A DNA stretch of 64,000 bases from Gekko japonicus. Its lineage: Eukaryota. The DNA is taken from positions 215,905 to 279,904 of the forward strand of contig NW_015173183.1 in the NCBI RefSeq assembly GCF_001447785.1. Direction: 5' to 3'. Below are positions 31,241 to 54,688 of the stretch, piece by piece (the stretch's first letter is position 1; each line of letters begins with the position of its first letter). Below the pieces are notes generated by a model. That model saw only the letters and a program-made list of their open reading frames with translations. It ran no database searches and was not told the DNA's origin. Position numbers and translations under genes: made by a program.

Positions 31241-31246
31241 AATAAA
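31241..31246 (+). terminator. PPP6C: Candidate PPP6C polyadenylation signal (another AATAAA at 30819)
   Basis: AATAAA at the end of a U-rich 3' UTR-like tract. Confidence 0.5.
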
Positions 31247-33319: not shown

Positions 33320-35740
33320 TCAGAGAAGCTGCTTGTATTAGAAAACAAAAGAGAAAAATTTATACAAATTAAGGATCAAAGTAAGGAACAGGAAGTAAAG
33401 ATGAAACAAGACCCTTCAATTGAATATACAAGAGTGAAACTAAAGTTATTGCAACATCAAATGAATTGTCTGTTAACTCAAGAAATAACTAAAAAAATTA
33501 CATATGCAAAACAAAATTATTTTGAAAATGCTAATCAACTAGATGGCATCAAGATCAAGCAGGCTTTTTACCAAAAAGACAACTTAAAAACAATGTAAGA
33601 ACTATATTAAATGTAATTGAATACTTTGAAGCTCACCCAGAGAAACAGATGGCCTTGATTGCTAGATGCTGAAAAAGGTTTTGATAATGTCAGTTGGAAT
33701 TTCATGGTGGAACAATTATTAACTTCACAATGTGGCAAAGAATTTTTCACAATGGTTAGAACAATTTATACAAAACAAGCAAGGGTTCTTGTTAATGGAG
33801 ACTTATCACAAAATATTGAGATACAAAAAGGAACCAGACAAGGATGCCCACTTTCACAGTTATTATTTATATTTGTGCTTGAAATACTGAATGATATGAT
33901 CAGAGAAGATACTCATATTAAGGGACTTAAAATAAGAGGAGAAGAATACAAATTGCAAGCATTTGCAGAGGATTTGGTATTTATTTTAGAAAATCCATCG
34001 GACTTCATTATGCAATTATTAGAAACTTTGCAAAGATTGGTAAAGTTGCTGGACTGAAAATCAACTTTAATGAAACAAAGATGTTAACGAAAAATATGAC
34101 TAAAGTCCAAACCGAGCAATTACAAGAAATATCAGGTCTGAAAGTCAAGAAAAAGGTGAAATATTTTGGAATAAATATAACAAATAGATGCAGTTCCTTG
34201 GTGAAAGAAAACTATATGGAATTTATATTGGATATTAAGAAAGATTTGGAAAAATGGAAAAACTTACAAATATCCCTGATGGGAAGAATAGCTACAATAA
34301 AAATGAATATTTTTAAGATTTATTTCAAACAATTCTAATCCTTCAAAATCAAAAATATTGTAAAGAACTTGATAAACTGATGGTACAATTTATATGGCAA
34401 AACAAGAAACCAAGACTAAAACTGAAAGTGTTACAAGATGCAAAAGAAAGAGTGGGATTTGCATTGTCGGAGTGGCTTTTATATTATAGAGCTTCATCAT
34501 AGATGTGGATAAAAGAATGGATTACATTAGAAAATACTAGACTATTAACATTAGAGGGACACAAATTATTATTGGGATGGCCTGCGTTTATATGTTATGG
34601 AAAGGCTGATACTCATTAGAAAAACAACATCTCATTAGAAGATCCCTATTGAAAATATGGGAAGAAGTTAAAAGACTTTTTTATACCAAGATACCAAAAT
34701 GGATTTCACCATTAGAAGTGTTCATAAACCCAAAATTATTTCAAAAAAAAGGTGCTCTTAAGATATGAAGACTTGTTGGATAATAAAAATGAATTAAAAC
34801 CAACAGAAGATTTTAATTTAAGTTGGTGGGGAAGAGTTCAAATAAAACCAAGATAAGCAAATAGGCTTTTATTCAAATATAACAGAAATTGATAAGATAT
34901 TGTTATATACTGATGAGAAATTGATTAAGAAATTATATGTAATAATGTTAGAATATAAAACACAAGATGAAATAGTTAAAAACTCTATGGTCCAATGGGC
35001 ATAAAACTTGGGTCATAATATTGATTTAGACCAGTGGGTACAGGTATGGGAAAAATGTAAAGTTTACTAAAGCAATGACTTATAAAGAAAATATTTATAA
35101 AATGTTTTATAGATGGTATATCACTCCAGATAAATTAGCAAAAGTTTATCCTGACCTAACAAATGATTGCTGGAAGTGTAAAAAAAACGCTGGTTCCTTT
35201 TTTCATATGTGGTGGATGTGTGATAGAGTTAAAAAATATTGGTCCTGGATTCATGAATTGTTACAAAAAATGTTAAAATGTACCATACCTTATATACCAG
35301 AATTGTTTTTATTGAATATATTACCAGAAATGTAGTGACAGCTGCAAGAATATTATATGCCAAATATTGGAGGAATAATGAAGTACCTTCAAAAGAAAAA
35401 TTAAATAAAATACTTGAAACCACAGAAATTCATAAATTAACTTTAATTTTGAGAGGACAAAATGAACAAAAATTTGAGAGTACATGGTTAAGGTTTTATA
35501 AATGGAGAGAAGAATACAATAAACCATATGTACATACAACCAAATCAGAAGGAAATATGAACTATATTTTTAGTTATGAGCAAAGTATTACTCAAAATAC
35601 ATGGTGGGGAAAAATAAAGAAGCAAAATATATAATTAGATAATGTATGAGGTAACAACTTGGAACCCCCCAATCTGTATGTATGTATGTTTGTTGTTTTT
35701 TGGTCTTTTATAAAAATAAAATTGTTTTAAAAACAAAAAC
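33320..35740 (+). mobile_element. Degenerate, internally deleted L1-clade LINE ORF2 fragment
   Basis: LDAEKGFDNVSW, GTRQGCPLSQLLF, AFAEDL (decayed Y/FADD) and a C-terminal CWKC...HMWWMC Cys/His motif. It has multiple stops and frameshifts, an A-rich sense strand and an A-rich tail. Confidence 0.88.
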
Positions 35741-36305
35741 CCTGGTTTGCATATACATCTCTGAATTTGAAAATTATCTGCTGTCAGAACCAACCAAGCA
35801 ACAGTCCAGTGGGCTCAAATTAGTGAAAGATTCTGTGTCAAGCAAGTACCATAACAAGAATTGTATAAAGCCTGTGACCAATAAAATGTGATACATTTCC
35901 TAGCCACATTCATGGCTAGACAGGAACAGCTGCAGAGAAATGTAATGCTTTTCTATTATGTGTGTTCTCTAGGAGTAAACCTTTTGATCAAAATTACCCT
36001 GCTTTTGTTGAGTGACTTATGCAACATGAGGGTTTTTTTTTACAATGTAGTGACAGTCTTAGTAAATGGAACCTAATGAACAGTGGGTGTTTTGACTATA
36101 GATTGTAACATGACACGACACCAGCATGCCCAAGCCACTCAAAACACAACTGTTTGAAGTGCTGATTATTTCTTTATCCTATTCGTTTTTCATGGTGTTG
36201 TGACAGCATGATGAACATTTTGGAAATGATGTCCAGTGGGACTTCGGCTCTGAAACGGATGTAGGGGCTTGAACCCTAAATGCAGTAGTGACTAGACCTT
36301 ACCAT

Positions 36306-36395
36306 AGATTCATAGCCGTGTTGGTCTGAAGCAGCAGAGCAAAGTTTTATTCAACTTTGTTGGTCTTAAAGGTGCCACTGGACTTAAACTTTATT
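36306..36395. mobile_element. 90-bp insertion (Penelope-like remnant) flanked by a 14-bp direct repeat
   Basis: CTAGACCTTACCAT at 36292-36305 and 36396-36409. The internal TAGCCGTGTTGGTCTG and GTTGGTCTTAAAGGTGCCAC recur near 47700, 47980 and 52955. Confidence 0.6.
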
Positions 36396-36690
36396 CTAGA
36401 CCTTACCATCTTTGTTAAGATTTGGGGCAATAGTGCATCTCTGAGGTAAAATGAACTGAAGTAAGTTTTCAAGGAAATTGAACTGAATGAGTTGCTTCAA
36501 GCATGGGGCTAGGGTGAGACACAGCTAATCAATAGCCTAAGTTGCTGACACAGGATGGTCCCTGCAAGGCTGTCAGTGACAAAGTACTGGAAACAAACCA
36601 ATGTGCCAGCTATTGAGGCCTGGCTTAGGAGGCGTTGGTCGACCATGTCACAGACAGAATATCAGTTTGTAAACAACTGAGATGGGGGGT

Positions 36691-37336
36691 AGGGTTGCCA
36701 ACCTCTGGGTGGTACCTGGAGATTTCCAGCTATTACAATTGATCTCCAGAGGAACAAAATCAGTTTCCCTGAAGAAAATGGCTGCTTGGAGGGTGGACTC
36801 TATGGCATTATAACCTGCTGAAGCTCCTCTTCCACTCCGTAGACCAGGGGTGTCGAACTCATTTGTTATGAGGGCTGGATCTGACATAAATGAGCCCTTG
36901 TTGGGCCGGGCCATGTGTGTCATAAAATGTAATGCCAGGTAGCGGAGATATAAACTTTATAAAGGACACAAGCACAAAGATTTTTTTTTACTTAAAATAA
37001 AAACATGCTTAAAACATTAGCTCTGTAAGCTGCAAACCTACTTTTGATTTATTGACATTCACCACAGAAATCTCATGCTCAGAGTTCTGAGTCTAGGACC
37101 CAGGTTAAATACGAAATGGCTGAGTGATTAAGAGAGTCTGGAGAAGCAAGCTATGATGCAGCAGCAGCAGCAGAACTGGAAGCAGATGTCCAGTTCCACT
37201 GCGGATCTGATGGAAGCCCTCTGGGGGCCTGATTTGGCCCCCGGGTTGCATGTTTGACACCCTTGCCCTAGACTCCACCATCACCAAGCTCCATCCCCCA
37301 AAATCTCCAGATATATCCCAACTGAGAGTTGCCAAC
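36691..37336. mobile_element. AGGGTTGCCA-type MITE split by a nested hAT insertion
   Basis: 36691-36844 plus 37274-37336 together match the element at 12152-12313. Confidence 0.65.
36845..37265. mobile_element. Non-autonomous hAT-type DNA transposon nested in the MITE
   Basis: TIRs CAGGGGTGTCGAAC / GTTTGACACCCTTG. 8-bp TSD CCGTAGAC / CCCTAGAC (7/8). Confidence 0.82.
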
Positions 37337-38127
37337 TGGGGGGCGGGCAGGGGGGACGACATGCACAGACTCTTTTTGAACAAAGGTGAACTTTATAAAT
37401 TATTGGAACAAAATCAAAACAGAAGACACAATTTATACTTGCAGTGCTTAGTTGTATTTAATTATTTGCTACTTATTGTCTTTCATATCTCATAGTGTAA
37501 GGCTTCTTATACTCCTTATCGATTACTATTGTTGATAAATTTATAATTAAAAATGGCTTAAGTTGCCTATGTGAATAGCGTTGAACAGGACTGAAGTAAA
37601 TTTAAGGAACTCAGTTACAGGAATTATATAGTAAATTAAATGGCAGAACCGAAGGAATGGGTTGCAGTACTAAAGTGAAGTGTGAAACGGGATGTACTAA
37701 AAGGAAGGAAAGGATTGCCCATTGGAAACAGTGGGAGACACTTGAAGGCCCATTGGGAAAAATGGGAGCCAGGAATGCTAATTGACTTGCATGGGCTCCA
37801 TTGAAATACATTACAGTACAAGTAGAGTTGCAAAAAAAAAAAAAATGCGGAATGGATTTTCCATTAGGGTCTCAAGGCCCAAATACACTACTCTGGGGAT
37901 GGAATGAGAGACCATGCAGTGGAATGTTACTGGGAGTAACAGAAGTGTTCTGGGACTGGAATAAGAGACCACATACTGGAATGACAGCCCCAGGGTGGAG
38001 GAGGAGTGTTCTGGGACTGGGATGACACGCCATGGAGTGGAATGACAGCCACAGGGTGTAGCAGGAGTGTTCTCGGACTGTGATAACAGGCCTCGGAGTG
38101 GAATGACAGCCCCAGGTTGTAGCAGGA

Positions 38128-38269
38128 GGGCTTGAAGGGCTTCTAATGTCCTGGCCCCACTGGTGGACCTCCTGATGGCACTGGTATTTCTGGCCACTGT
38201 GTGATACAGAGTGTTGGACTGGATGGGCCTTTGGCCTGATCCAACATTGGTATCTCTTATGTTCTTATG
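38128..38269 (+). mobile_element. CR1 3'-end fragment inserted in the satellite
   Basis: Reverse complement of 11352-11459. Ends in CTTATGTTCTTATG. Confidence 0.85.
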
Positions 38270-38507
38270 AACAGGAGACCACAGAATGGAATGACAGCCC
38301 CAGGGTATAGCAGGAGTGTTCAGGGACTGGAATGACACGTCCCGGAGTGGAGCTTGAGTGTTCAGGGACTGGAATGAGAGACCACAGAGAGAATGACAGC
38401 CCCAGGGTGTAGCAGGAGTGTTCTTGGACTGGGATGAGAGGCCCCAGAGTGGAATGACAGCCCCAGCAGTAACAGAAGTGTTCTGGGACAGGAATGAGAG
38501 ACCACGG

Positions 38508-38634
38508 ATACTCCAAAGAGCAAGCTTCTACTTGCAGCCATAGATAGGGATAAATGAAATTGTGTGAGCCGCTCAAAGACCCCCTTGGGGTTCGAGCGGG
38601 ATACAAATCGAAAGCATAAATAAAATAAAATAAA
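38508..38634 (+). mobile_element. LINE/SINE 3'-tail fragment (L2-like) inserted in the satellite
   Basis: TGTGAGCCGC...GAGCGGGATACAAAT followed by a (TAAAA)n tail. Confidence 0.55.
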
Positions 38635-39814
38635 ATGACAGCCCCAGGGTATAGCAGGGATGTACAGGGACTGGAATGACGGGCCTCAGAATGTAATGAC
38701 AGCCCCAGGGTGGAGCAGGAGTGTTCTGTGACTGGGATGAGAGACCACACAGTGGAATGACAGCCCCTGGGGGTAGCAGGAGTGTTCTGAGACTGGAATG
38801 AGAGACCACAGACTGGAATGACAGTCCCAGGGTGTAGCAAGAGTGTTCACAGACTGGAATGAGAGACCAAGAGTGGAATGACAGCCCCAGGGTGGAGCAG
38901 GAGTGTTCTTGGACTGGGATGAGAGACCACAGAGTGGAATGACAGCTCCAGGGTGTAGCAGGAGTGTTCAGAGACGGGAATGATGGGCCTCAGAATGGAA
39001 TGACAGCCCCAGGGTGTAGCAGCAGTGTTCAGGGACTTGAATGAGAGACCACGGAGTGGAATGACACAGCCCCTGGAAGTAGCAGGAGAGTTCTGGGACT
39101 GGGATGAGAGACCCCAGAGTGGAATGACAGCCCCAGGGTGTAGCAGGAGTGTTCCAGGAGTGTTCTGGGACTGGTATGAGAAACCACAGAGTGGAATGAC
39201 AGCCCCAGAGTGTTCAGGGACTTGAATGACAGGTCGTGGAATGGAATGAAAGTCCCAGGGTGGAGCAGGAGTGTTCTGGAACCCGAATGACAGGCCCAAA
39301 GTGGAATGACAGCTCCAGGGTGTAGCAGGAGTGTTCGCGGACTGGAATGAGAGACCACAGAGTAGAATGACAGCCCCAGGATGGAGCCGGAGTATTCAGA
39401 GACTGGGATGAGAGACCACGGAGTCCAATGACAGCCCATGGGGGTAGCAGGAGTTTTCTGGGACTGGGATGAGAGACCACAGAGTGGAATGACAGCCCCT
39501 GGGCTTAGCAGGAGTGTTCAGGGACTGGGATGAGAGACCACAGAGTGGTATGACAGCCCCAGGATGGAGCAGGAGTGTTCTGGGACTGGTATGAGAAACC
39601 ACAGAGTGGAATGACAGCCCCAGAGTGTTCAGGGACTTGAATGACAGGTCGTGGAATGGAATGAAAGCCCCAGGGTGGAGCAGGAGTGTTCTGGAGACTG
39701 ACAGGCCCAAAGTGGAATGACAGCCCCTGGGCTTAGCAAGAGTGTTCTGGAACCGGAATGACAGGCCCAAAAGTGGAATGACAGCCCCAGGGTGTGGAGC
39801 AGGAGTGTTCAGGG

Positions 39815-40164
39815 TGTCAGTATCTGTATCTATACTGGCAAGCTGTCAGTCTGCCATGAGCAGCGATGTCAGATCTAGATGATCTAGTTATGACAGTCAG
39901 TGGTCAGGTGATAGGCAGATTGCATCAGACTCTGCTCAATCACCATGACTAGGCTTTATGTAAATTACTGTGATTTGATTGGTCTTTGTAAATATAAATG
40001 GAGAGCTGTACAGTGCTGAACATCTCCTGCGTGGGATCAGTTGTCTGCGAAGCACCTTGTCGGAGTGAACTGTGAGTTGGACTCAGAAAGGCTGTAAATA
40101 TACTCCAGTGTAAATACTGTAAATACTCTACTCTGCTACTTTTCGGGGTCTCTAACTACCGTCA
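39815..40164 (+). mobile_element. Solo LTR (350 bp) inserted in the satellite
   Basis: TG...CA termini, 5-bp TSD CAGGG (39810-39814, 40165-40169) and an internal TATA-like AAATATAAAT. The satellite register resumes exactly after it. Confidence 0.75.
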
Positions 40165-42109
40165 CAGGGACTGGGATGAGAGACCACAGAGTGGAATGAC
40201 AGCCCCTGGGGATAGCAGGAGTTTTCTGGGACTGGGATGTGAGACCACAGAGTGGATTGACATTCCCAGGGTGAAGCAGGAGTGTTCAGGGACTGGGATG
40301 AGAGACCACAGAGTGGAATGAGAGCCCCAGGGTGAAGCAAGTGTGTTCTGGGACTGGGATGACAGATAGTCTTTATTTGTAATAACTCATTTAATAAGAA
40401 TGTAGGCTTCTGAAATGAGCCTTAATGCTTTGATTTAATCTTTAATTTAACGCAAACGCCTCTATGCATTATATGCTGGGTTATTTTTTGCATTGTTTTC
40501 TAATTTTGTCATCCACTTTTTATTGGACAGGATCTAACAGTTCCCTGCACTGCTTCCCACTCTTGTAACTCCTACACTATGGTCTGTATTGTAGGGTATT
40601 TTTGGTGCAATATTGGTTGTATATATTATGCTGATTTTACTACTTCCCTTTTATTCCTAATCCTTCTTTGTGCATCAAGTCAGGCAGGCTATAAATGAAA
40701 TAAAAGAAAACAATGATGGAAGTGATCTGAGAGTACCTGGAGTTGCACATTTCCTCTTCCATAGTCTGCACTGCACTGCCCTGCACCTCTTCCTTCTGCA
40801 CTGAGCGTATCCTCTCATAGGCATTACCTGAGCTGTGAATCACCTTGCACTCAATGAAAGGAAATTGGAAGACCAATGCATCGATCAAAATAAGCAGGGT
40901 GCTTCAGATTTCAGTCTGAAGCCATCCACTGAAGGAAAAAGGCAGGTGCTAGAGGGCTAGAAGGGCCAATGTACTCGATGCCTCTTGCTTTTAACAAAGG
41001 AGGGGGGGGGGCTGCAAGACAAAGCTATCGCTGGGAGGAAGAAGTCCTTTGAGCTCTGTCTTGCAGCTGGATCTTCTCTCTTTCTCAAATTTTGTCCTCC
41101 TCGCTCTTCCCTCCCCCCCAAGGGAGACCCAATCCATTAACCATTAGACCCTACTGTGGTACAGCAGCCAAAGGCAGCATCACATCTGAGGAGTGGGGAT
41201 GCGGGGTCAGGAAGCCCTCCCACGAGAGTCAAGCCTCACCTCACTTTAGCTGGCCACAGATTCGCGTGGGATGAAGACGGGCTGTGCTCGGGTGAGGTGC
41301 ATGCAGGCAGTCCCAAGGCGTGACCTTCTCACAGCTGCCAGAGAGCACACGGCCATCCTTGCCCCACCACATGGCCATCCTTGCCGCAGCCACAGCCCCA
41401 ACCCCTGGCAGGCAAGTGCTGACGCTCCCTCGGTTCACCACACGCAGTGACGGGATGCAGGGGGGACAGGCAGCCCGGCCGGCGCACCTGCAGGAAACTG
41501 CTCGGCAGGGCGGGCCAATTCCCACACGGTACAAAGACAACGGAGCTCGGCGCTTTCGGACCCCCCAGTCGTCCCCCCCGGCGATCCCAGGCACGCACAC
41601 ACAACCAGGCCCAGCTGAGCCCGCCCCCATTCCCACGGCAGGACCAACTTCTCCCAAGGCCAGGAGAGTGGACAGCAGGGAGGGAAGGATATGGGAGGAG
41701 GAGGAGGAGGAGGAAACAGGGTGAGGGAGGGTGCGACCCACAGTGGGACAGAAATCCACACCACTAAAGGGGGTGGAGGATTCTCTGGTCACCAGGGAAA
41801 GGGCTCTGGCAGCGGACTTGGGGGAGCGGCGTCTTGAAGTGCACTCCGTGGATAAAAGAGCGGTGGATCTCTCCCGAGGGATGAACCGAGGGAGAGCAGC
41901 AAGAGCAACGCGGGAAGCAAAAGGCCGACTGGGAGCTTTGCCTAGGCGAAGGGTGGCCAGGACCGCCTTCGTCCCAGCCAGGGGCCATGAGGAGGCGTTC
42001 CCGGAGGGGGGCAGGGGGCGTCTTCAAAGAAGAGAAGTCAGGGAGTGGAACTTCCCCACACCCAGCTCCGCCCCCAAGGACCACCTCCAGCGGCACCGCC
42101 TTCCCCCTC

Positions 42110-42600
42110 CCCTCCGGCAACATTGAAAGGGGCCAGCAAGGCCGTTGGCCATAACTCTTTAAAGGGCGCCTTAGGAGAGCTGGGGGAGCCAGAATGACCT
42201 TTCGCATCTGACGTGTCTCTCAAACGTGAGAGGCGGCTTTTGCCCCTACGAGTGCAAGGCCACCACCCCTGGTCTCAGGGAGGCGGGGGAACCTTTCACG
42301 CCCCCCCGTGGCCATTACCGCTGCCGCCTCTGGCGGCGGCCATACCTTTTTAAAGAGCCCCTTACGAGAGCTGGGGGAGTCAGAATGACCACTCGCATCT
42401 GATGTTCGAGCGGCAACGCTTGGACATCAGACGCAAGAGGCGGCTTTTGCCCCAGGAGTACAAGGCCACCGCCCCGGGGCTCAGGGAGGCGGGGGAACCT
42501 TTCACGCCCCCCCCCGCAGCCGTTGCCTCCGCTGCCTCTGGCAGCGGCCATATCTTTTTAAAGAGCCCCTTACAAGAGCTGGGGAAGCCAGAATGATTTC
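42110..42600. repeat. About 200-bp GC-rich unit repeated about 2.5 times; a further rearranged copy lies at 44620-44835
   Basis: The motif TTTAAAGAGCCCCTT..GAGCTGGGGGAGCCAGAATGA recurs at about 42158, 42349, 42557 and 44690. Confidence 0.8.
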
Positions 42601-43034
42601 TTGCTGCCAATGGGAACAAGCCCAGCAGCCATTTGTGTTACTAAGGACTACTACAATGAACCTGTTCTGCGGGCACTCCAGCTGGTCAGTGCCAAACTGG
42701 ACAGTCTTGGTGATGGCCTAATGTCCAATAGGCACAGTTAAACAGGGTAAGTTCGACTTGGAATTCACAGCATCTCTAGTTACTTCTGGTCAACTCGGGG
42801 GGGGTGGCGCGGGGGGGCTGGCCATTAAGTCCACCACAAATAGTCCCAGTAGGCTGATTACATTGGAGCTTCTCTGTCCTGCCTGAGGAAGGATGTACTT
42901 GACCCTGCCAAGCAAAATCCCATGCAGCATCTCCCAGCCTAAGCCCTGTGTGGAAACGAGGCACCTGACCAAACCTGGCACAGAGCTAAGTAGGTGAGCT
43001 CTTTCAACCTCTGTCTCCGTTTGGGGGTGAGGTA

Positions 43035-43472
43035 TGACCCCTAGGGGTAGCAGATGTGTTCTGAGGGTGGAATGACAGGCCCCACAGTGGAATGACAGCC
43101 CTTGGAGGTAGCAGATGGGCTATGAGGGTGGAACGACAGGCCCCACAGTGGAATGACAGCCCCTGGGGGTAACAGGAGTGTTCTGAGGGTGGAATGACAG
43201 GCCCCAATGTGGAATGACAGACCTTGGGAGTAGCAGGAGTGTCCTGGGACTGGAATGACAAACAGGCCTCAGTCCCAGAACACTCCTGCTACCCCCAAGG
43301 GCTCTAATTCCACTGTGGGCCTGTCATTCTAGTCCCAGAACACTCCAGCTCCCACCAGGAGCTGTCAATCGTCTGTGGGGCCTGTCATTCCAGTCCCAGA
43401 AGACTCCTGCTACCCCCAGGGGCTGTCATTCCACTGTGGGGCCTGTAATTCCAATTCTAGAAAACTCCTGCT
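43035..43472. repeat. Second patch of the 61-bp satellite; orientation switches near 43268
   Basis: GGAATGACAG units at 43035-43265, then reverse-complement units (CTGTCATTCC, AACACTCCTGCTA) at 43270-43472. Confidence 0.88.
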
Positions 43473-44614
43473 AAAATACCATACATAAAATGTGTACTGC
43501 TTGCACCCACAGATGGGCTGCCAATACCTTTGATTCTATAGCATTCCACTATTACAGCTTCGGAACATGTCAGCTGTCATTAATGAGGGAGCATTGTTGC
43601 ACCTCACACTGTTTCCAAGCTATCAGCAATCCCTAGCAAGACCTCAATCCTGCACTATGGTTACACTTGAACACCGTAAACAGTCACTAATATTTTTAGA
43701 AGAGGCTTTTATTTTGCTCATCTCCATGAAATAAAGGAAATAGCAGCTTTCTCATCTTTACCTGCGCCATATTCTCTTCTCTTTCAGGATTGGCAACATG
43801 CAGAGCAGCATTTGCTGACCCTAACCAGCCAAGACAAACCCACCCAAATCACGACACTTGCTGGAGCTGGTAAAACCAGTCTTGTCTTGCCCAACTCAGT
43901 TCCACACATGATGGATATATGCATCACAATCTTGCATGGGATTATCACTGGTGACACACCATGGGCAGCTACAGGGTGAGGCTCATCTCATACTACAGCA
44001 CCCTGTCCCATATCACCATTTTGTCTTTACACACTTATCCCTGCCCTATCATTTACAGCCCTACAAGTTAACACATCTGTTTCAAGTCAACCCTGTCATT
44101 AGAGAATCCTGGGTTGCACAGGAGGCGAGAACATGCCGCACACACTGCTGCAAACATCCCCCCGGTAAAGGATATTGCCGCAGCGCCGCCTCCACCTCCG
44201 GGCCGGGCCCTCCGTCAGCCCCAGTGCCGGACCCGTCGGGCTCCTCCACGAAACGGTTCTCGTCGAACTGGTCGAGTTCCGCGCCATGACAGGCCGGGGC
44301 GAGAGAAGGGAACGTGAGGCGAGGACAGCCCCCCGGGCACCGCTGCTCCGACCGCCGCCACCTGCGGGCCTCCCCCTCCCACGCACCCACCGGAAGTGGA
44401 AATGTCGACAGAGGAGGCCGAAGGGAAAACGTGACGAACGGCAGCGCCAGCCAATCCCCGCGCGGCGCAGAGTGGGAAGTCCGAAAAGGGGAGGAGCGTC
44501 GCCCCAGGAACGGTCGCTGAGGTCCGCCTTCGTCTCAGCGAGTTGCTCCGCCTTCGTCTCAGCGAGTTGCCGGGAGCAGGCAGTTAAATCTCTCGATTGG
44601 GGTTAAATAAAGGT
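43473..44614 (-). pseudogene. ARPC5L: Inverted partial duplicate of ARPC5L (promoter, frameshifted exon 1 with ATG at 44288, U12 donor, part of intron 1)
   Basis: Reverse complement of 45025-47146 with internal deletions. A 31-bp deletion after codon 5 shifts the frame. Exons 2-4 are not present in this copy. Confidence 0.9.
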
Positions 44615-45024
44615 GTTAAAGGGAACCAGTCGCGCCCCCCCCCCGGCAGCCGTTTCCGCCGTCCCTGCTTGGGGCGGCGGCGATATCTTTTTAAAGAGCC
44701 CCTTCCGAGGGCTGGGGGAGCCAGAATGACCTCTCGTGTCTGATGGGAGGGAGCCCTGAGCCTGAGCCTTTGGTGGTGTTGGCGTTTAACTCCAAGGGGC
44801 AAAAGCCGCCTCTCGCGTCTGATGTCCGACGCTACCCGTTTCCATGGAGATGACAAGACTGGGTGCATCAAGGCGGGGGAGAGACGGAGCGACGACCGCT
44901 CGTGTGAACTGGTGCAATTTACTGTGTTTTGTCCTTGAATTGCAATTTTCGGTTTTATTGGAAACCGCCTTGGGCAAATGAGTTTAGACAGCGTCATACA
45001 CACGTCCGATAAAACGAATAAAAT

Positions 45025-45360
45025 ACCTTTATTTAACCCCAATCGAGAGATTTAACTGCCTGCTCCCGGCAACTCGCTGAGCTTTCACGTGGGAGGCGGC
45101 AAGACGAAGGCGGGGCAACTTGGGACCTCAGCGACCGTTCCTGAGGCGACGCTCCTCCCCTTTTCAGACTTCCCACTCTGCGCCGCGCGGGGATTGGCTG
45201 GCGCCGCCGTTCGTCACGTTTTCCCTTCGGCCTCCTCTGTCGACATTTCCGCTTCCGGTGGGTGCGTGGGAGGGGGAGGCCCGGCGGTGGCGGCGGTCGG
45301 AGCAGCGGTGCCCGGGGGGCTGTCCTCGCCTCACGTTCCCTTCTCTCGCCCCGGCCTGTC
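45025..45360 (+). promoter_or_regulatory. ARPC5L: CpG-island promoter / 5' UTR of ARPC5L
   Basis: CpG-dense, with inverted CCAAT (GATTGG, about 45192), CGTCACG (about 45212) and CTTCCGG (about 45252) upstream of the ATG. Confidence 0.65.
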
Positions 45361-48300
45361 ATGGCGCGGAACTCGCTCTCCTCGCGCTTCCGCCGCCTGG
45401 ACATCGACCAGTTCGACGAGAACCGTTTCGTGGAGGAGCCCGACGGGGCCGACACTGGCACTGGGGCTGGCGCCTCTGAGGCTGACGGAGGGCCTGGCCC
45501 GGAGGTGGAGGCGGCGCTGCGGCAATATCCTTTACCGGGGGGATGGGAAGAGACACCCCCGCCCCGCACTTCTAAGCTCGTGAAGATAACCTCGCCCTTA
45601 GAAAATCCATGTCCTTTCTTTTGTAGACAGGTATTCTCCTCTCCCCCACCCCCTTCTGCTTACACCTTAAGGGTGGTTGTTTTTTGGGGGGGCGGGGGGT
45701 ATTTTTCCTCTGCCCTTTTCTCCTCTGCCTCTGTGTTCTGGGAGCCCTCTTCTTTCCCCTTGTGTTTTGGGGTATTCCGATCTCCGTCCACGTAGGGTCA
45801 TTCATTCTCTTACGCACTTTCTTCTTCCCTCTTCGTGCATTTAGGAATATTTTCTATATGCGTTTTGGAGTATTGCCTCCCCCCCCCCCCCGGTTTTTAG
45901 GGTACCGCATGTCCCATTATTCTGGGTTTTAGAGGACTGGTAACAACTTTAATGGAAATTTACACTCATTCCCCTTAATAATGGTATGGGCCGTGTAACT
46001 GAGCTGAGAGAAGTTATTAGGTCTCTTACCTTTATGTGCCTTAACATAACTCATTTACACTCAGGGGTGTTGGTGGAAAAGTAATGGCTTTTAAAAGATT
46101 TTTGTGCCTGATTGTCTAGAGAGGACTTGCCCCAGTTGACTGGCTGGCTGCAAAGTGTGATCCAAGATAATCTACAGTAGCTGTCTTGCTGCCCCTGCCA
46201 TGTCTATGATATTTACTACAGTGTAGTAACTCATCCTCATGGTGTCCACCTTTTCTCTTCCTCTTTATCCCTGTGCAACAAGAACTAGACCTTGAGTTTG
46301 GGAGAAAGGGGTGGACCTGATGCTAGACGACCATAAAAGGTAGGCTAAGGCTACCTTCAGACAGCTAAACTGTGCTTAATAATTGCAGCCTTTGGAAGCT
46401 GCTCGGGGTGTTATGGTTACTGTTTGCAGCAGTGTGTGTGGCATGTTCTCGCCTCCTGTGCAACCCAGGATTCTCTAATGACAGGGTTGACTTGAAACAG
46501 ATGTGTTAACTTGTAGGGCTGTAAATGATAGGGCAGGGATATGTGTGTAAAGACAAAATGGTGATATGGGACAGGGTGCTGTAGTATGAGATGAGCCTCA
46601 CCCTGTAGCTGCCCATGGTGTGTCACCAGTGATAATCCCATGCAAGATTGTGATGCATATAGCCATCATGTGTGGAACTGAGTTGGGCAAGACAAAACTG
46701 GTTTTACCAGCTCCAGCAAGTGTCATGATTTGGGTGGGTTTGTCTTGGCTGGTTAGGGTCAGCAAATGCTACTCTGCATGTTGCTAATCCTGAAAGAGAA
46801 GGCGGGGTGTGTGTGTATAGAATATATATGCAATAGAATATATATATTAGAATACGGCACAGGTAAAGATGAGAAAGCTGCTATTTCTTTTATTTCCTGG
46901 AGCAAAATAAAAGCCTCTTCTAAAAATATTAGTGACTGTTTAGGGTGTTCAAGTGTAACCATAGTGCAGGATTGATGTCTTGCTAGGGATTGCTGATAGC
47001 CTGGAAACAGTGTGAGGTGCAACAATGCTCCCTCATTAATGACAGCTGACATGTTCCGAAGCTGTAATAGTGGAATGCTATAGAATCAAAGGTATTGGCA
47101 GCCCATCTGTGGGTGCAAGCAGTACACATTTTATGTATAGTATTTTTGCTGTTGGTTTACTCTGAGGGGTCTTAGCTCCTAATAATTTGAGCCATCTATA
47201 CCCAATTCAAAATATCTTTGTATGGTCATAAGTGTCGTGAGGAAGAACTGCACGTTGCTCAAAATGGCAGAACAAAGCAGAAATGTAAACATTCAAGAGG
47301 TTCTCAACACTAAACAATTTGAGGCCCATTTTCCAGTGTTTTTAAGGCTCTAGCAGGGAGTAATTTCTCCTTTACTTGGCAGCTTGCAACTTTTCAGCTC
47401 TTTTCTGCCATGGTTTTCATAAAGGTTTTTTTTTAATTAAATGGAGTATGTGGGACTCTATACTGTTTTGCTGAGGACAACTTAAGTTGGTTCAAGTATC
47501 TGGAACATCCGTCTATTTGTATTTGTGCTTCCTCTGGGGTTAATATTTTTGATACTGAAATAACTGGCTCCTTGTAAATCAACATAAATCATTCTGTGTT
47601 CTGAAGAATCCAGAAGTTCCTCCAGAAGATTAATGATAGACAAGCATCCTTCATAGTATCTGGAGAAGTGAGCTGTAACTCACAAAAGCTCATACTGAAA
47701 TAAATATTGTTAGTCTTTAAAATACCCTTGAATTTCTGTTTTATTTTGCTGCAGTAGAACTAACCTGGCTACCCCCTTGGAATTGTCCACCACTGCCTCT
47801 CTTTCCTTGAAATTCACAGCACATTCAGCTCATATAAAGCAGTGGGGAGGCCCAACAGGTTGGCCAGTGCCTTTGTGAACACAGCATGTTCTGGAATCTT
47901 CTGCAACACACAAAGAATCTGCAACAAATATAACTTTCTTACATAGCAGATAAATGTATGTGGAAAGAATAAATAAGAGTCTTGTGGCACCTTAAAAACA
48001 GGTTGGTTGTTATAGCATAAGTTGTGTTGGACTAGAGCCCACTTTATCAGAAAGGGTTCTGTGGGGGTAGGACATCTGAAAAACTCTGAAGTGGTAGTGA
48101 TGTGTATGATTTTGGATCTGGTCTCCATTTCTTAGTGAGCAAGACAAGACAACCTGGTTAGAATTATTCCAGAATTTGCAAGATCTCCAGTGTTAAGTAG
48201 TCGTATTATAGGGAGTGAATATTAGGTCCCTTTGAGATGTCTTCTGAAAAAATGTCTTAGGTAGGCCGACACGGTTTGTAATGAGATATTAGAACTTAGC

Positions 48301-51300
48301 TGATATGATGCTCAAAATAACTGCCATGTATCTCTTTGGGATGTAACCCAGATTGCTGCATTTATTAAGAGACTGCATGGAAGACAAGAACAAAATGTCT
48401 GTGGACAATATTCTTTCTATTTGAACTCTGCAGTTGCATTTGTGTGCCCATACCTGGAAGTCATGGCGAGTCCTACTGGGGCATGGAGGACATTCGGAGA
48501 AGTGGCTTGATAGCCTGCCTCTGCCTCCAGGCCCTGGTCATCTTTGGAGGTCTCCCATCCAAATACTTGCCAGGGTCGGCCCTGCTTAGCTTCTGAGATC
48601 TGATAAGATTGGGCTTGCCCGGGCTATCCAGGTCAGGGCAAATATGCACTTTTTTAAAAGGGGAAGACAGTGGCATCAGGCCAGGCTTTTCCTGCTGCTA
48701 GTATAGTGGGAATGTTTGTCTTATTTGTCCTCTGTCAATAAAAAGATAGCTGTGCCAGGTATAATAGCAAAGGGCTTCTCCATCTGGTGTGCAACAGCAA
48801 AACCTGTGTAGTCACTTCATCACTGGAAAAAGAGGTTTCCTGGTCTTTCAACAGGGCTGGGCTCTGTAGGATGAAATGGTGAATCACTAGGGTGGTATCA
48901 GACAGTTATGGACTTGCCAGTTTAAACCTTTGTGATGTGCCATAGTTGTAAATCAGAATCCTGTGTTTTTAATGCTTTGCTCAGCAGTTTTTATTTATTT
49001 TAAACATTTTTTAGCCATGTGAAGAAATGCATTTTTTCCTGGGAGGTTTGCAATGAGCAAAACCTCCACTCTGCATTTTAAAGCCCCCCCCCCCCAGAAA
49101 AGAAGGTGGGGAGTCAGTTCAATTGCTTCCCAGACATACCTCAGCTCACCTTCATACAAATGCTAATGGATCTGGCTGGAGAAATAATGGGTGGGTCAAG
49201 TTTTTCCACTTCTCCAAGCAGGGAACAGAGATTTGGAGGAACAGAATGCTAGAGTCTCCTTTTTGGCCTGACCCTGGTCACGGGGTGGGGAAAAGGGAGG
49301 TGATGAAAACTCCTTGCAGCAGGAAGGAGGTCTCTTTTCTTTGGGTGCTGAGTCCAGGAGTGGACACAGACCTCTACACTAGGAAGGCAGCATTTGACCA
49401 TGGGCTTGCATAAAGAGCTGGAGCAAGCTTCAAGGTAACGAAAACTCTGTAGAGATTTGTAGCATCCTAAGCTTATGGAGTCTGTCCTAGAGTTTAATAT
49501 CTGATAGGTGATGTACAGAGAGGGACAGAAGAGTTGTGTTTTGCCAATTTCTTTTGGATCCCTTGTTCAATCTGGTGCTGTGCTAAAAGTATGCTTGTGA
49601 ACATTTTCTTTTTAATAAATACTTTACAACTTAAGATGCTGGCAGTGATTCTCTGTACCACATAGACCTCCACCGTCTCAGACAAACTATTTTGAAAGGA
49701 GCGCCAGGGCGAAGGCAGGTAGTTGGTGTGGCTGTTCCTCCAAGGGTGCACAAGGCAGTAAACTGTCTCCATGGTGACCAGGCACTGAGCAGTGGGAGAC
49801 ACAGAGGCAAGGCCTCAGAACTTGGAAGGGAAGCTGGGAGCCCTGATCTTCCCAGAGGGCAATTCCTTACAAAGGTCAGATAGTGATGGCAAGTTACCAG
49901 AGAGAGAAAGGAAGCCTCTGCAGGGGTTAGGTAAAACCTTGGAAGACAGGGTGGAATAGGGCCTGTAGGCCAGAGCAGGCCTGTTCTGCCACGAGCTGCC
50001 TTTTCATCCTATGGAATTCAAGACAGCTGTCATTGTAAATAAAATAACAATAATAAAACCCAGAATTTAAACCACAAATGAAGACTGCCATCAAACTAAT
50101 CAAATACAGTCCTACATAAAATCTTATTTGACTGCTTCCCAAAGATTGAAAGTGAGGGGGGCCAGGTGTAACTCCATGGGGATGGTTTTTCTATAACTAT
50201 GGTGTTGCCACTGCCCTCTCTCATGTACCCACCGAATGAGCTCTGGATGATGGGACCGTCAGGAGGACCACTTTGTGTGATCATAATTCCTAGGCAGGAA
50301 CATGTGGGAGAAGACGGTCCTTCAGATACCCTAGTCCCATGCCATCTAGAGCTTTAAAGGACAAAACCAACACCTTGAATTGGGTTTGGATCAGTAGTCA
50401 GTATAATTGCTATAATAGTGCGGCCACATACTCCTGATAACTGGCCCCCATCAGCAGTCTAGACACTGCATTCTATACTAGCTGCAGCTTTATGAAACTT
50501 TTTGTGTGTTTGGTGAGGTGACACAGTTTGAGTTTGAAAGACCCTGAGAGATTATAGGTTGCTGTACAGAAAAAAAAGTAATGTATTACTTTTTATTAGT
50601 ATCAACCAAAATACCACATTGAAAGCTACTGAATTCTTCAGTAGGCTTGGATGTTCACTTAAAAAGGATGAAAAGGGAGGAGGAGGATATTTAAAGTCAT
50701 AGTGTTTGTAAGACCTTATTGTTGGCTGAAAGGTCTTTGGAAGAAACTAGCATTCGTTCCAGGGGCTGTATTTTGAGGATAGCTAAGCCAGGGGCTTGGG
50801 TCCAGACTAGTTTTTTCAGAGGCGCAAGGACTTCAGTGCACAAAGCATGATCCCCACCGCAACAGCCCAAAATGCTTTAACAGGGAAAGATCTCTGAATT
50901 GTTGGGTGTGCAGCTGCTACTTGTTTGTAGATCTATAAGTATGGGAGGGGGATGTACATGCTAGCCAGGTGGCTTGAAACAGGTGACACTTTTCCTTCTC
51001 TATGTTGGGGGGGATAATGTATGGAAATCTGTATCAGTGTTTCTCAGTTTATTATGAGGTATGCGAATTTAATATGGATTTAAACTACTTGTGGCCACAA
51101 AGAGTAGTGGCAGAGCATGTTCAGGCTTTTACTTATTTCAGCTGAGTAAAGCTAATAATTTAAAAAAAGAGCATACATAGAGATTTAACAATAAATGCGG
51201 GCTATTGGTTTTTACCAGCATAGTCTAGTGTTTTGGGTTTTTTTAAATGTACATGCTCCCTTGATGCTTTTTCCTTATTGCTTAGCTTTCTGGCAAGTAC

Positions 51301-54300
51301 AGAAGGAAAATTTTAAAAAGTTTTTTTTAAGGAAAAATATTATTAAAATCCAATTTGTTATAATAGTGGGAGAGTTATAAAATCAGTTGAAGAGTTCTTT
51401 TGATCTGAAAGACTGCCAGTCCTGTCACACTTGCTTTGGGTGACAAAGGGTTTCCGGTGATTTTTATATGAAGAACTGCTTTAAAAATGAGTGGAGGAAA
51501 TTAACCTTGCAGCAAAAACAACCTTTGCTTGCAAACAGGGGTGCTTTGTAATTTTTAGATAATCAGACATGTAATGCAGAAAACAACATTTAGAAATAAG
51601 CAAAGGAATTTTATTTTTGGAAGTCCTGTTCAAGTGTAAATGTCTCTCCCTTGTTTGTCTGATAAGTGCAATTGTTAAGACATCACAGAACTCATACCTA
51701 AGAAGCATTTCCCCCAGGAGTTAAGGTGGAGGGGAAGTCTTGTTGATAAAAACTGGGTTTCTACGTTTCATTTCCTGAACTGAATCCTAGCTTGCTTTCT
51801 AATTCATTAGTTACAGCATCAGTATTTCCTAGGGGTTTAAGGGGACAAGATTATGCTGAAAAAGCATTGACTGCCAGTTAGTTCAAATCCCAGTTTGAGG
51901 GTCTGGTCTTGGGTCTGATGGGTTCTCTCTACTCAGTGGCTGGCTCTTTAACTTGCTCTGCCGCACAGGAGACATGCTCCGAGCATTCCACATGGCTTTA
52001 CAGAATTCGCCCAGCAACACTAAGAACCCAGCAGCAAAGGTAAGCAGTGTCTTTGGCCATCACTGTAATAAAATATTAAGGTCACTAAATCAGATCTTAT
52101 GGGCATGACACGACTGGTGCTTAAAATCCCTTGTGAAAGTATGGCATTTTTCCTAATGGGTAGCAGGTGCCTTGCTGTGGGAGCCCTCTTTTTGTCAAGT
52201 CTCTTCACTGTTACATTAGTTGCTGGGAAATAGCTGTTATGAGTTTAGGTTGTATTTGTGGCCTCACTCTCCTTGCATCTCTCTCCAGGAGCGGGCCCAG
52301 GAAGTGGTGATGAAGGTCCTCACCTCTTTTAAAGGCAGCGAGATAGAACAGGCAGTAAACTCCTTAGACAGAAATGGTATTGATTTGTTAATGAAGTACA
52401 TATATAAAGGATTTGAAAAGCCAACAGAAAATAGCAGTGCAATACTACTTCAGTGGCATGAAAAGGTATGTGATTTCTGTCCTTCAGCCTGCCTGAAAGC
52501 TAATGGCTTTTTGAATGATTGTCCACTTTTTTGTTGTCATTCCACATGCAGCCATAGAGTCCAGATCCTCGATGAGGTAGTAGAGCAGGTTATTAAGGTT
52601 GAGAGAAGCTGTATCATGTTGAGAGAAACCGTATCATGGTAACAGTTTGTACAGAATTTCAGGGCACTTCTAAGTAGGGAGCTGAGGATTTCTAGAATTT
52701 TTCCACAGTGATGCTTTAGCACTCTCTAATAGGTAAGATCCACCTAGGCCACAGCTTTGTTCCCCAACACACCAGACTGGCAGAGAAGGTGCAGGGAAAC
52801 GTTTTATGCTTCAGCTCAGGGGATCCTGGGCAAGAAGGCTCTTGTCGCCTCCAAGGAATCATTTGTACTAGTGGTAGTACTCTGCAGTGCCGAAACAACA
52901 GACAGAAGCTGTGTGCGTAACACGCAGTCCACCCATGAAGATAGTTTCGGGGGGTAGCCATGTTGGTCTGCTGTAAAACAGGGTCGAGTCCAGAAGCACC
53001 TTAGAGACCAACAAGAGTTTCAAGAGTCAAAGCTCCCTTTGTCAGACACGAGTGGAAATTCAGAACTCTTGAGTCCTTTTATTCTAGTCAGAAGGTGGGA
53101 GGGATGTTGTGAAGGATGCTACTATGCCTATTGGAATCGGCCTGATTAGAGCAGAGGGGAAAGATCTGGTTTCTTGAGGAAGGCATCTTCTGTGCATAAG
53201 CTGTAGAACTGGTCTTAGCCCTATAGTATTGGCACGATGGAGGAGTATATGACCTCTGCTGTGAATAGCTTTCCAAAGCCTACTGGTGAAATTATGCTCA
53301 GTATTGATGTTCACAGATGCAGCTTTTCTTGCAGACATTCCAGGGGGTGGTTGCAGGCTCTGTTCTCATGACAACATGGAGAGTGTTTCTGCTTGCTCTC
53401 CTGTTTCCATTGGAAACAGCAGCTTGTGGCCAGTGTAGGTTGGCATTTGTGGTTTTGTGAAATCAGACAAAACTGCCTGTTTGGTAGGAGGAAAGACTGC
53501 TGAGAGTCTGCATGTGTGTGGTTTACAGCCCCCCCCCCTTCCCAAATTCTCAGAGTAGCAAAGCATTTCCAAAAGTTCTGGAACAGCATCTGAGGCAAAC
53601 CTTTACTTGTGTCATTCTGCAAGGGTAAAATGTGTACCTTATGGTGAGACTTCTTACAGTTGCCATGAGCAAATGCTACTGTCTGAAGATAGGAAGCCAC
53701 AGTTGCTCAAAGTAGTTTCACCAGCAGGGCTGCAGAAACTGACCTTGCATGTCTTTTCTGCTCATGCATACACGTACAATAGGTGTTGACTACAATTGTC
53801 TGCTCCATGGAGATGCCTTAATTGATAAGGGAAGGGAGCTTCTGGTAGCTTACATTATTCCTCTTCTACTGAACAAATAATGTTTTGAGCTCTGATGGTA
53901 GATGAGATGTGCTTTCTCTCTCCTCCTGCCACATAGACTCTGCTTCAGCTGTCCCCCAGCCTTTTGGCTTGGGCTCAGAGCCTGCATTATAGCTATACAC
54001 TTAATTTGGTCCTTTTAGATGAATATATGGAATTGCTTTTGTCTTGAGCTGGGTTCAGTTATGCACAGATTTCACACGAAGAGGCTGAAAGTTAGAACTA
54101 CTGACTTTGAGTTCCCAGAACAGCATAAAAGCTAACAAATATGCTTCCCCCCCCGCCTCTTGGAAATGTTCATGTTCTGTAATTGTTTACCTCAGTTAGT
54201 GAGAAAGGCCCAGACTAGGTATAGTCTGTATGCAGTGTCCAAGAGAAGAAATAGCAGGTTTGTTAGAATGTTTGATTAGGAAAACCATGAATTGCGGTGC

Positions 54301-54688
54301 CCTGAGGGAACTGATTTGTTTTCCTTCAGGTCCTCTTTTACCTATATCCTTCCTTCCTTAACTTAAGAGCACTAGGGATAGAAAATTTGGCTTCAGACAG
54401 CAGAGGCCTAAAAGATGGGGGTTAGGAGAGAGGTAGTATTCCTGCTAAAGTCAAAAGAATGAACTGCGAAGAGATACTATTTTGGATATAAAAACTGCTC
54501 CATGAACCCAGGGCCAGTAGTGACCTTAAAGTCCTTTAGAGCTGTTTCATATGTTCTGAGAAATGTGCTTGTTTGGGACTGGCCCCTAAACTAATATCTG
54601 TGTTTCTTTTTCTCTCATTCCTCAGGCATTAGCAGTAGGTGGACTAGGATCCATAGTAAGAGTTCTTACTGCACGAAAAACTGTTTAA
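45361..54688 (+). CDS. ARPC5L: Actin-related protein 2/3 complex subunit 5-like, 158 aa; coding exons 45361-45524, 51967-52039, 52289-52465, 54626-54688
   Basis: [21 protein letters not shown]...[11 protein letters not shown]...[63 protein letters not shown]. The frame joins only with an AT-AC first intron (477 nt). Confidence 0.96.
47655..47780 (+). mobile_element. Penelope-like element terminal-repeat remnant (related pieces at about 47975-48050, 52950-53050 and 55665-55705)
   Basis: GAAGTGAGCTGTAACTCACAAAAGCTCAT..AATAAA..GTTAGTCTTTAA pattern, shared with the other listed fragments. Confidence 0.5.
48441..48640 (-). mobile_element. 5S rRNA-derived SINE (5S-Sauria-like)
   Basis: Minus strand GATCTCAGAAGCTAAGCAGGGCCGACCCTGGCAAGTATTTGGATGGGAGACC aligns to the 5S rRNA A/C-box region, then continues into a non-5S tail. 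Confidence 0.75.

Follow-up and report, generated by a model that had tools for sequence, protein, structure and literature searches.

In human genomes, inverted duplications lying less than 5 kb from their source make up 54% of 229 verified inversion sites, and the part of the survey cited here names this Inverted Dup class as the commonest inversion-type variant (PMC4617611). The members of the class are not retrotransposed and are ascribed there to replication errors. Unstable palindromes, in the cited parts of two further studies, likewise consist of adjoining long inverted repeats of high identity (PMC7999016, PMC10164571). The locus described here shares features with both and fits the first best. 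A copy of the 5' end of ARPC5L lies in reverse orientation to its intact source and only 410 bp (<5 kb) away from it.

The window is a 64,000-nucleotide stretch of Gekko japonicus contig NW_015173183.1. In it, an inverted, internally deleted copy of the ARPC5L upstream promoter, exon 1 and 5' intron 1 (43473..44614, minus strand) aligns to a source arm comprising the promoter, exon 1 and the first 1.6 kb of intron 1 (45025..47146, plus strand; chain alignment). The coordinates given for the arms and the 410-bp spacer in the preliminary description are exact, and the inverted duplication is confirmed to be present in the sequence as described there: all 1,142 bases of the reverse-complemented copy are rebuilt from segments of the source arm in a base-by-base chain. 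The scattered substitutions mentioned there amount to 23 mismatches in 1,137 aligned columns (2.0% divergence), and nine indels of at least 5 bp separate the arms. The perfect runs shared by the arms reach 137, 119, 102, and 90 bp, and self-BLAST gives E=0.0 and 1e-169 for the two blocks of the pair, far above chance. The copy holds sequence upstream of the ATG as well as intron and has no poly(A) tail, indicating that it arose at the DNA level and not by retrotransposition. The divergence would correspond to an age of roughly 2-15 Myr. On the whole, the locus is probably best explained as a lineage-recent local inverted duplication with a decaying copy, for which no regulatory role is needed.

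The right-hand gene is ARPC5L with an intact AT-AC minor intron, as had been proposed. The gene (45361..54688, plus strand) encodes a full 158-aa open reading frame with 0 differences to Gekko japonicus XP_015278078.1. Its exons lie at 45361-45524, 51967-52039, 52289-52465, and 54626-54688, and its AT-AC intron 1 (45525-51966) carries the branch point TCTTTAAC at 51945. ARPC5L is a conserved minor-intron gene (PMC6717393). Because the copy lacks exons 2-4, it could never have worked as a gene.

The flanking order RABEPK(-), PPP6C(+), ARPC5L(+), GOLGA1(-) is the same in chicken, Pogona, and Podarcis, indicating that the duplication arose locally and does not mark the breakpoint of a rearrangement. 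The mammalian order, as in cattle, is RPL35, ARPC5L, GOLGA1, SCAI, PPP6C, RABEPK (PMC10818672). A gecko-specific inversion breakpoint at the copy is ruled out, since the three sauropsids share the order of the window and only mammals differ. In Gekko kuhli, two accessions fall between GOLGA1 and RABEPK, which fits either order, RefSeq numbers not being positional. A search for coding remnants (RPL35, SCAI, and others) between PPP6C and ARPC5L, covering the frames not wholly within the LINE, the satellites, or the copy, matched Pfam in 0 of 143 frames, at a low sensitivity that also missed the ARPC5L exon 1 control.

The spacer (44615..45024) is CpG-rich (o/e 0.95) and partly similar (73-88%) to about 2.3 tandem 200-bp units at 42147..42600 (plus strand), one half direct and one half inverted. 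Judged by this similarity, the units are an older duplication of the ARPC5L upstream region also seen in the spacer. Their CpG o/e is 0.66, below that of the spacer and the arms, hinting at the usual fate of such copies. Neither a spacer micro-inversion made with the copy nor older ARPC5L copies in 41.2-43.0 kb are supported: 0 of 5 spacer/older-copy alignments beat shuffles, the best score being reached by 22 of 300. At its outer end, the copy abuts 3.4 reverse units of a 61-bp satellite (43270..43472, minus strand) with about 1 bp of homology. Together with 3.6 forward units (43031..43260, plus strand), to which they are about 80% identical, these form a separate inverted pair with a 21-bp stem and a 17-nt loop at 43231-43291. 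The reverse block was rejected as part of the young event, its best identity to seven array stretches being 76-84% and not 98%, on the assumption that the satellite source has not been deleted.

The outer junction in the satellite is one of the features that would favor an assembly artifact. The copy could be real but misplaced or mosaic: a dispersed fragment of a paralog, or else a dead allele, that was attached here via the satellite or via identical arm stretches. The assembly from which the window probably comes used Illumina reads only and was made with SOAPdenovo and SSPACE (PMC4673495), and the perfect runs of the arms could let variants swap between them. Protein collections yielded no independent trace of the copy, with exact look-up finding 0 of 6 copy frames; however, 0 of 2 gene read-through controls were found either, so these misses are uninformative. 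A representative-protein search with the copy frame gave 9 hits, none extending beyond the exon-1 part. Against an artifact, no N gap lies in or near the element (the sole N run in the window is 11460-11737), and a single read would span the 57 bp that separate the inner junction from the first copy-specific deletion. The arms are also too diverged for a simple haplotype echo, as had been argued: 2.0% exceeds the 0.5% heterozygosity taken from another gecko (Poisson p=4e-8), and it is implausible that one allele should combine a frameshift with six further deletions and a switch into satellite. Therefore, we consider a misplaced or mosaic copy quite improbable.

A sex-chromosome origin of the left arm, as a degenerating Y-linked ARPC5L merged into a male animal's scaffold, is barely credible. 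The sequenced animal was indeed male, an XX/XY system has been described in G. japonicus, contradicted by reports of temperature dependence (PMC8290109), and the chicken-17 block holding ARPC5L is Z-linked in Podarcis. However, a gametolog is not expected to end exactly at both ends of 2.1 kb, inverted 410 bp from the gene. In addition, the window contains no second copy of any neighboring gene, and none of the literature consulted links the ARPC5L block to sex in Gekko.

Relative to the gene, the copy shows the four deletions originally listed: 877 bp (45546-46422, TG microhomology), 31 bp (45376-45406, TCG microhomology, causing a frameshift), 15 bp (45470-45484, GGCTG microhomology), and 6 bp (45452-45457, 1-bp homology). 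The junction string put forward for verification occurs in the copy but not in the gene. Four indels had been overlooked. These are a 22-bp deletion (45082-45103, AG homology), through which the promoter loses its sole CACGTG E-box, a deletion of 11 bp (45114-45124, GG homology), a 47-bp difference at 46802-46848 without homology, and five additional bases in the copy at about 43720-43724. The assignment of the deletions to the copy holds for the three in exon 1 only: the gecko outgroup ARPC5L proteins are all 158 aa long with the full linker, indicating that these three are derived in the copy. The 24-bp tandem duplication at 44523..44570 (minus strand) is perfect, as reported, and its unit already holds the 22-bp and 11-bp deletion junctions, which lends partial support to at least two successive rounds of change.

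The indels are unevenly distributed. Seven of the nine events begin within the inner 40% of the copy (p=0.027), partly supporting a higher deletion load toward the inner end. The overall load is 9 indels (at least 5 bp) per 23 substitutions, compared with 1 per 18 in a duplicate pair of comparable divergence in the window (p=0.07). Load and clustering both suggest that plain drift was not all, and that arm pairing or slippage in GC-rich sequence, for example, contributed.

The distribution could be read as the trace of a near-perfect palindrome that folded into hairpins or cruciforms and suffered repeated breaks mended by MMEJ, the dispensable arm losing central sequence until stable; the 410-bp spacer may itself result from an asymmetric central deletion. 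The inner clustering, the excess over the control pair, and the sequential change recorded in the tandem are all consistent with such a course, and five of the seven copy deletions have at least 2 bp of homology (p=0.008 against random placement). In long single-stranded DNA, moreover, even widely spaced, diverged repeats pair, according to the cited part of one study (PMC10164571). However, only two of the seven have at least 3 bp, compared with 40% of ordinary human deletions, and the inner end coincides with the GC-rich island, a setting that favors deletions regardless (PMC9069542). The junction homology is thus above random placement and not above ordinary deletions. The spacer is likewise long for hairpin breakage. 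In the cited part of the palindrome literature, hairpin- and cruciform-forming palindromes have no spacer or a short one (under about 50 bp), 52 bp of spacer already sufficed to abolish fork stalling in eukaryotic cells, and with 280 bp the repeats proved stable in wild-type yeast (PMC7999016). The gecko pair, whose spacer is 410 bp and whose perfect runs do not exceed 137 bp, belongs to the pairs described in the same cited parts as normally stable unless long single-stranded DNA is present (PMC7999016, PMC10164571). The innermost 57 bp of the arms are still perfectly matched, and small deletions also occur at the birth of template-switch rearrangements, as the cited part of another study describes (PMC6902434). 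Reading the deletions as scars left by MMEJ after breakage of a palindrome is therefore unproven, and we regard it as unlikely.

The copied CpG-island promoter and exon 1 (44157..44614, minus strand) have a CpG o/e of 1.02, against 0.99 in the gene. The promoter motifs had been described as retained. Both CCAAT boxes and the ETS core, CRE-like, and GC-box matches are kept, whereas the E-box is lost; we take the motif identities in both arms from consensus patterns. The ETS site of the copy reads ACTTCCGG and fits the presumed consensus better than that of the gene. CpG sites differ between the arms at 5 of 55 positions in the island and at 5 of 7 in the intron (p=0.0007), the island differences being gene-only in three cases and copy-only in two. 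A test for methylation escape at the copy CpGs was not significant (3 losses, compared with 3.4-7.5 expected if methylated; p=0.06-0.56).

The copied ATG is kept at 44287 (minus strand), in line with the preliminary description. It opens a 62-codon reading frame (44099..44287, minus strand) that shifts after codon 5, so that the first five residues only are those of ARPC5L; the frame has no Pfam match and is absent from the protein collection, and Rfam gave 0 matches in the window at gathering score. The U12 donor is also retained: ATATCCTTT at 44175-44167 (minus strand) matches perfectly. It is an orphan AT-AC donor, no branch point with AC/AG acceptor being found leftward of it as far as 30500. 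The first poly(A) signal for a leftward transcript, AATAAA at 43708..43713 (minus strand), lies 570 bp beyond the copied ATG and is shared with the gene intron at 46906. By simple scan, the same two U1 sites occur in both arms, giving no support for differential loss. Because the copied CpG island is little decayed, a short unstable leftward RNA from the copy is plausible.

A bidirectional promoter has two divergent start sites within about 1 kb. The ATGs of copy and gene stand head to head 1,074 bp apart, which fits this spacing as measured between ATGs and not mapped start sites. On this geometry, the copy could be an active divergent promoter kept for tuning ARPC5L by factor sharing, by U11 snRNP on the orphan donor, or by dsRNA, the last requiring read-through from the PPP6C side across both arms. 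The copied island has stayed intact for about 2-15 Myr, the ETS site is the better match, and the perfect donor comes from a conserved minor-intron gene. However, the substitution density in the copied island (8/460) is not clearly below that of the intron part (15/677), and deletions cross the island. The survival of the 9-bp donor is expected by chance (about 83% at 2% divergence). At least 19 plus-strand AATAAA motifs between the PPP6C stop and the copy limit read-through, and CpG-island promoters are divergent anyway. We therefore hold retention for tuning to be very unlikely.

The suggestion that the leftward transcript competes with or regulates ARPC5L fares no better. The RNA is hypothetical, cannot splice, and has the same sense as the ARPC5L mRNA, hence it is unable to pair with it; one extra U11 site is not expected to titrate a pool serving hundreds of introns. 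Regulation of ARPC5L by the copy is unsupported. A further form of the idea, in which the copy is a live unmethylated second promoter and the mirror-image bidirectional unit measurably alters ARPC5L output in Gekko, through U11 loading on the orphan donor without U1 protection or through about 1.1 kb of dsRNA folded from read-through over the two arms, is likewise very unlikely. If it were true, the locus would in addition provide, across Gekko species, a dated natural record of the stepwise dismantling of a germline inverted repeat from its inner end.

A decaying local duplication would account for the locus as follows. About 2.1 kb of the ARPC5L 5' end would have been copied backwards and inserted 410 bp upstream of its source, two template switches in replication or repair being the simplest route. 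Free of selection, the copy would then have lost seven segments and gained the tandem repeat, mostly in the GC-rich inner third, and the losses, whose pattern is seen in at least two rounds, presumably went via slippage or end joining at short homologies. Copy and live promoter share one continuous CpG island, in which the copied part may, on slender indications, have stayed largely unmethylated. Leftward transcription from the copy probably yields a short unspliced RNA that is cleaved at the intronic AATAAA and presumably degraded like an ordinary promoter-upstream transcript. The survival of the copy would thus be explained without any regulatory role.

As it stands, the locus adds a further small inverted duplication to the commonest inversion-type class, one that happens to include a housekeeping promoter. 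The copy offers a clean, sequence-resolved inverted repeat with unusually many mid-sized deletions in the dispensable arm, whose sequence in time could be worked out from comparative Gekko genomes. In practice, 98%-identical promoter and exon-1 sequence is a hazard for read mapping, primers, and guides at gecko ARPC5L. Should the copy prove to be transcribed and to change ARPC5L output, the locus would offer a divergent transcript with an orphan U12 donor, of which natural cases are rare.

Compared with the human Inverted Dup class, the gecko copy is slightly larger (1.1 kb now, from a source span of 2.1 kb), nearly all human members being below 1 kb in the part of the survey cited (PMC4617611). 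It is also millions of years old and not polymorphic, heavily deleted, and captures a CpG-island promoter with a first exon.

Fold-back inverted duplications share with the locus inverted arms that flank a non-duplicated spacer; in the part of the study cited, they range in size between 10 kb and tens of Mb in the rows listed, pass through a dicentric intermediate, and end in terminal deletion, translocation, or ring (PMC3907307). Here, the arms are 1-2 kb and interstitial, and the flanking gene order is intact, so that 'fold-back', as the locus had been called, does not apply in the strict dicentric sense. Their spacers, in the same part, are 766-70,466 bp with 2-8 bp of inverted homology (PMC3907307). 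Beyond the arm end, the part in which such homology is visible in the present allele, the spacer junction here has no match.

Template-switch rearrangements of the FoSTeS/MMBIR type, which involve error-prone synthesis, as presented in the cited part of their description, have short junction homologies and small deletions nearby, as does the copy (PMC6902434). The 24-bp tandem, however, postdates two deletions, so not every lesion stems from the first synthesis. The copy is also like non-processed partial pseudogenes, in which a promoter and first exon are duplicated without the remaining gene. Like promoter-upstream transcripts, any divergent RNA of the copy would likely be short and unstable, but it would differ from them in carrying an ATG and a U12 donor copied from ARPC5L.

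The left arm (43473–44614, −) is a partial, inverted, non-processed pseudogene fragment of ARPC5L lying beside its parent promoter, an arrangement of a known and common kind. The right arm (45025–47146, +) is the start of the intact four-exon gene, which encodes 158 codons with no internal stops. Exon 3 fits the solved structures of ARPC5L (E = 4.8e-30) better than those of ARPC5 (E = 8e-25), and the spliced protein has 0 differences from Gekko japonicus XP_015278078.1 and 5–7 from the proteins of four other geckos. A GOLGA1 exon in the window likewise matches its G. japonicus protein at 100% identity. Intron 1 of ARPC5L (45525–51966) starts with ATATCCTTT and ends with AC, with the branch point TCTTTAAC positioned 14 bases before the terminal AC; the same minor intron is present in human and mouse ARPC5L (PMC6717393). 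Several lizard ARPC5L gene models (proteins P0005, P0016, P0036, and P0040) are split or read through at this AT-AC intron, and the Phrynocephalus model consists of two adjacent locus tags, which suggests that annotation tools mishandle the intron.

In a self-comparison of the window, 43470–44156 pairs with 46421–47149, and 44155–44617 pairs with 45022–45545. A chain of gene segments explains all 1,142 bases of the reverse-complemented copy in 1,137 aligned columns, leaving a spacer of 410 bp (44615–45024) between the arms. All structural features listed in the preliminary description are present in this explicit alignment of both arms, but its list of indels overlooked the 22-, 11-, 47-, and 5-bp events. 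The copy lacks seven gene segments (22, 11, 31, 6, 15, 877, and 47 bp), carries a 24-bp tandem duplication, and has a further 5 bases that the gene does not. The arms differ by 23 substitutions (15 transitions), 8 in the 460 columns of the CpG island and 15 in the 677 columns of the intron. The full exon-1 linker is kept in all five gecko ARPC5L proteins compared, which places the origin of the 31-, 6-, and 15-bp deletions, the only polarised indels, in the copy.

The window very likely belongs to the G. japonicus assembly built with SOAPdenovo from Illumina reads of one male (PMC4673495). The outer junction falls within satellite sequence, and identical stretches as long as 137 bp, shared by the two arms, could permit mosaicism. 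However, the divergence of 2.0% exceeds the heterozygosity of 0.5% in another species, Lister's gecko (p = 4e-8; PMC12142722), the sole gap in the window lies 31 kb from the element, and only 57 bp separate the inner junction from the first deletion specific to the copy. It is therefore improbable that the copy is misplaced or that the arms are mosaic, and the earlier argument that divergence speaks against a simple assembly echo holds. Protein-level searches with copy-derived queries detected nothing specific to the copy; the gene-side controls missed as well. A substitution rate of 1.75e-9 per site per year, applied to the 23 differences in 1,137 columns, dates the copy to 5.8 Myr (3.5–8.3); non-CpG sites alone give 3.7 Myr, and rates of 1–3e-9 widen the range to 2–15 Myr. 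These figures would be underestimates if gene conversion acted between the arms.

The deletions had been ascribed to palindrome-driven breakage repaired at microhomologies. Junction homology of at least 2 bp is indeed found in five of the seven deletions, above random placement (p = 0.008). Homology of at least 3 bp is found in two of seven, compared with 40% of ordinary human deletions of at least 3 bp (PMC9069542), and thus junction homology gives no specific indication of MMEJ or palindrome breakage. The copy carries nine events for 23 substitutions, versus one for 18 in a second duplicate pair of similar divergence elsewhere in the window (p = 0.07). In addition, seven of the nine events begin in the inner 40% (p = 0.027), and the 24-bp tandem holds two earlier deletion junctions, indicating that the events were successive. 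However, the inner part coincides with the GC-rich island, and deletions are favoured in GC-rich DNA (PMC9069542). Spacers of 52 and 280 bp are already quiet in eukaryotic tests (PMC7999016), long single-stranded DNA being an exception (PMC10164571), and small deletions arise at the birth of template-switch events (PMC6902434). No special mechanism is needed for the one-sidedness of the deletions, given that selection acts on the gene arm. An instability mechanism is possible, but breakage driven by the palindrome is an unlikely source of these deletions.

The comparison pair, two direct copies of part of an RTE-like reverse transcriptase (17777–18738 and 18865–19821) inside the RABEPK–PPP6C head-to-head interval, shows 18 substitutions and a single 5-bp indel over 957 bp, and may be either a true internal duplication or an echo of the assembly. 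A nearby 145-bp tandem duplication of 99% identity (17443–17732) is possibly an assembly echo, and a GOLGA1 intron holds a near-perfect palindrome of 86 bp (95%; 60914–60999), possibly a MITE-like element.

The gene order in the window is HSPA5 (+), RABEPK (−), PPP6C (+), ARPC5L (+), and GOLGA1 (−). Pfam HSP70 and Metallophos matches underlie the HSPA5 and PPP6C calls, respectively, names that we take to be right in view of synteny. The cattle order differs, with RPL35 beside ARPC5L and SCAI beside PPP6C (PMC10818672), raising the candidate of a rearrangement breakpoint at the element. This is ruled out by chicken and Pogona (RPL35 (−), SCAI (+), GOLGA1 (+), ARPC5L (−), PPP6C (−), RABEPK (+); PMC4902969) and by Podarcis, whose order is listed as identical to that of chicken (PMC8290109), all of which agree with the window. 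Therefore, the duplication is a local event. Mammals and sauropsids appear to have the SCAI–GOLGA1–ARPC5L block in opposite orientations. In chicken, Pogona, Podarcis, and this gecko (window 30523–45361), the ARPC5L promoter is faced by the 3' end of PPP6C, and the gap between the two genes, by measures that are not identical, is 172 bp, 2.4 kb, 7.1 kb, and 14.8 kb (stop to ATG in this gecko), respectively.

Besides the inverted arm, the gecko gap is filled by an AT-rich decayed LINE directly downstream of the PPP6C 3' UTR (33300–35720, +; RVT_1 match), a 61-bp satellite, and older copies of 200 bp of the spacer. The satellite (37892–40366 and 43031–43472; ~38 units, 34 forward and 4 reverse) is broken up by short insertions and has no Pfam or Rfam match; at its flip (43231–43291), a stem of 21 bp closes a loop of 17 nt (z −5.6). 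The spacer-like copies (42147–42600, matching 44621–44830; ~2.3 tandem units), one half in the same orientation and one half in the opposite, contain ATATCTTTT, one base off a U12 donor, and represent an earlier duplication-inversion of the ARPC5L promoter region. Together with the inverted arm, they indicate that the ARPC5L upstream region has been copied more than once. The adjoining 41200–42146 (65% GC, CpG o/e 0.52) resembles a CpG island in decay; it has no Pfam match and shares no detected similarity with the ARPC5L promoter.

The CpG o/e values of the copy, the spacer, and the gene are 1.02, 0.95, and 0.99, respectively. CpG sites differ between the arms at 5 of 55 positions in the island (3 gene-only, 2 copy-only) versus 5 of 7 in the intron (p = 0.0007), as would fit an island that has remained unmethylated in both arms. 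A direct test for methylation escape of the island, with CpG rates taken as 5- to 11-fold, is not significant (p = 0.06–0.56). In a scan with consensus motif patterns, the promoter motifs said to be retained are so for CCAAT, ETS, CRE-like, and GC-box matches, but the E-box is lost, as the 22-bp deletion takes out the sole CACGTG of the promoter.

The predicted leftward RNA shifts frame after Ser5, stops after 62 codons, and meets AATAAA at 43713. For its orphan U12 donor, the AT-AC donor carried without exons 2–4, no branch point plus acceptor is found at six candidate sites down to 30500 by a scan that recovers the true site in ARPC5L. These features point to an RNA that would be short, unspliced, and unstable. 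Because this RNA would match ARPC5L mRNA in sense, antisense pairing between the two is excluded. Minor-intron genes number several hundred, making U11 titration by one extra site implausible. A 9-bp donor has a ~83% chance of staying untouched at 2% divergence, so its survival is no evidence of selection. The proposed competition with, or regulation of, ARPC5L is thus unsupported.

No homology is visible beyond the arm end at the arm–spacer junction, and the arm joins reverse-oriented satellite with about 1 bp of homology. This reverse block shares only 76–84% identity with each array stretch of the window, so it was not freshly copied together with the arm, unless its own source has been lost. 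In the simplest account, two template switches would have produced a 2.1-kb inverted insertion. Among the papers listed by our literature searches, none is on an ARPC5L duplication in a lizard; ARPC5L is absent from the text and two supplements of the chromosome-level G. japonicus paper, and supplements of its bioRxiv version might list breakpoints or duplications here. The "fold-back" of the preliminary description does not apply in the dicentric sense: such duplications, as described in PMC3907307, are accompanied by translocation or terminal loss and have spacers of at least 766 bp, whereas the gecko event is local with a spacer of 410 bp. Instead, the copy fits the human class of short, non-retrotransposed inverted duplications lying no more than 5 kb from the source, to which 54% of 229 verified inversion sites in humans belonged (PMC4617611).
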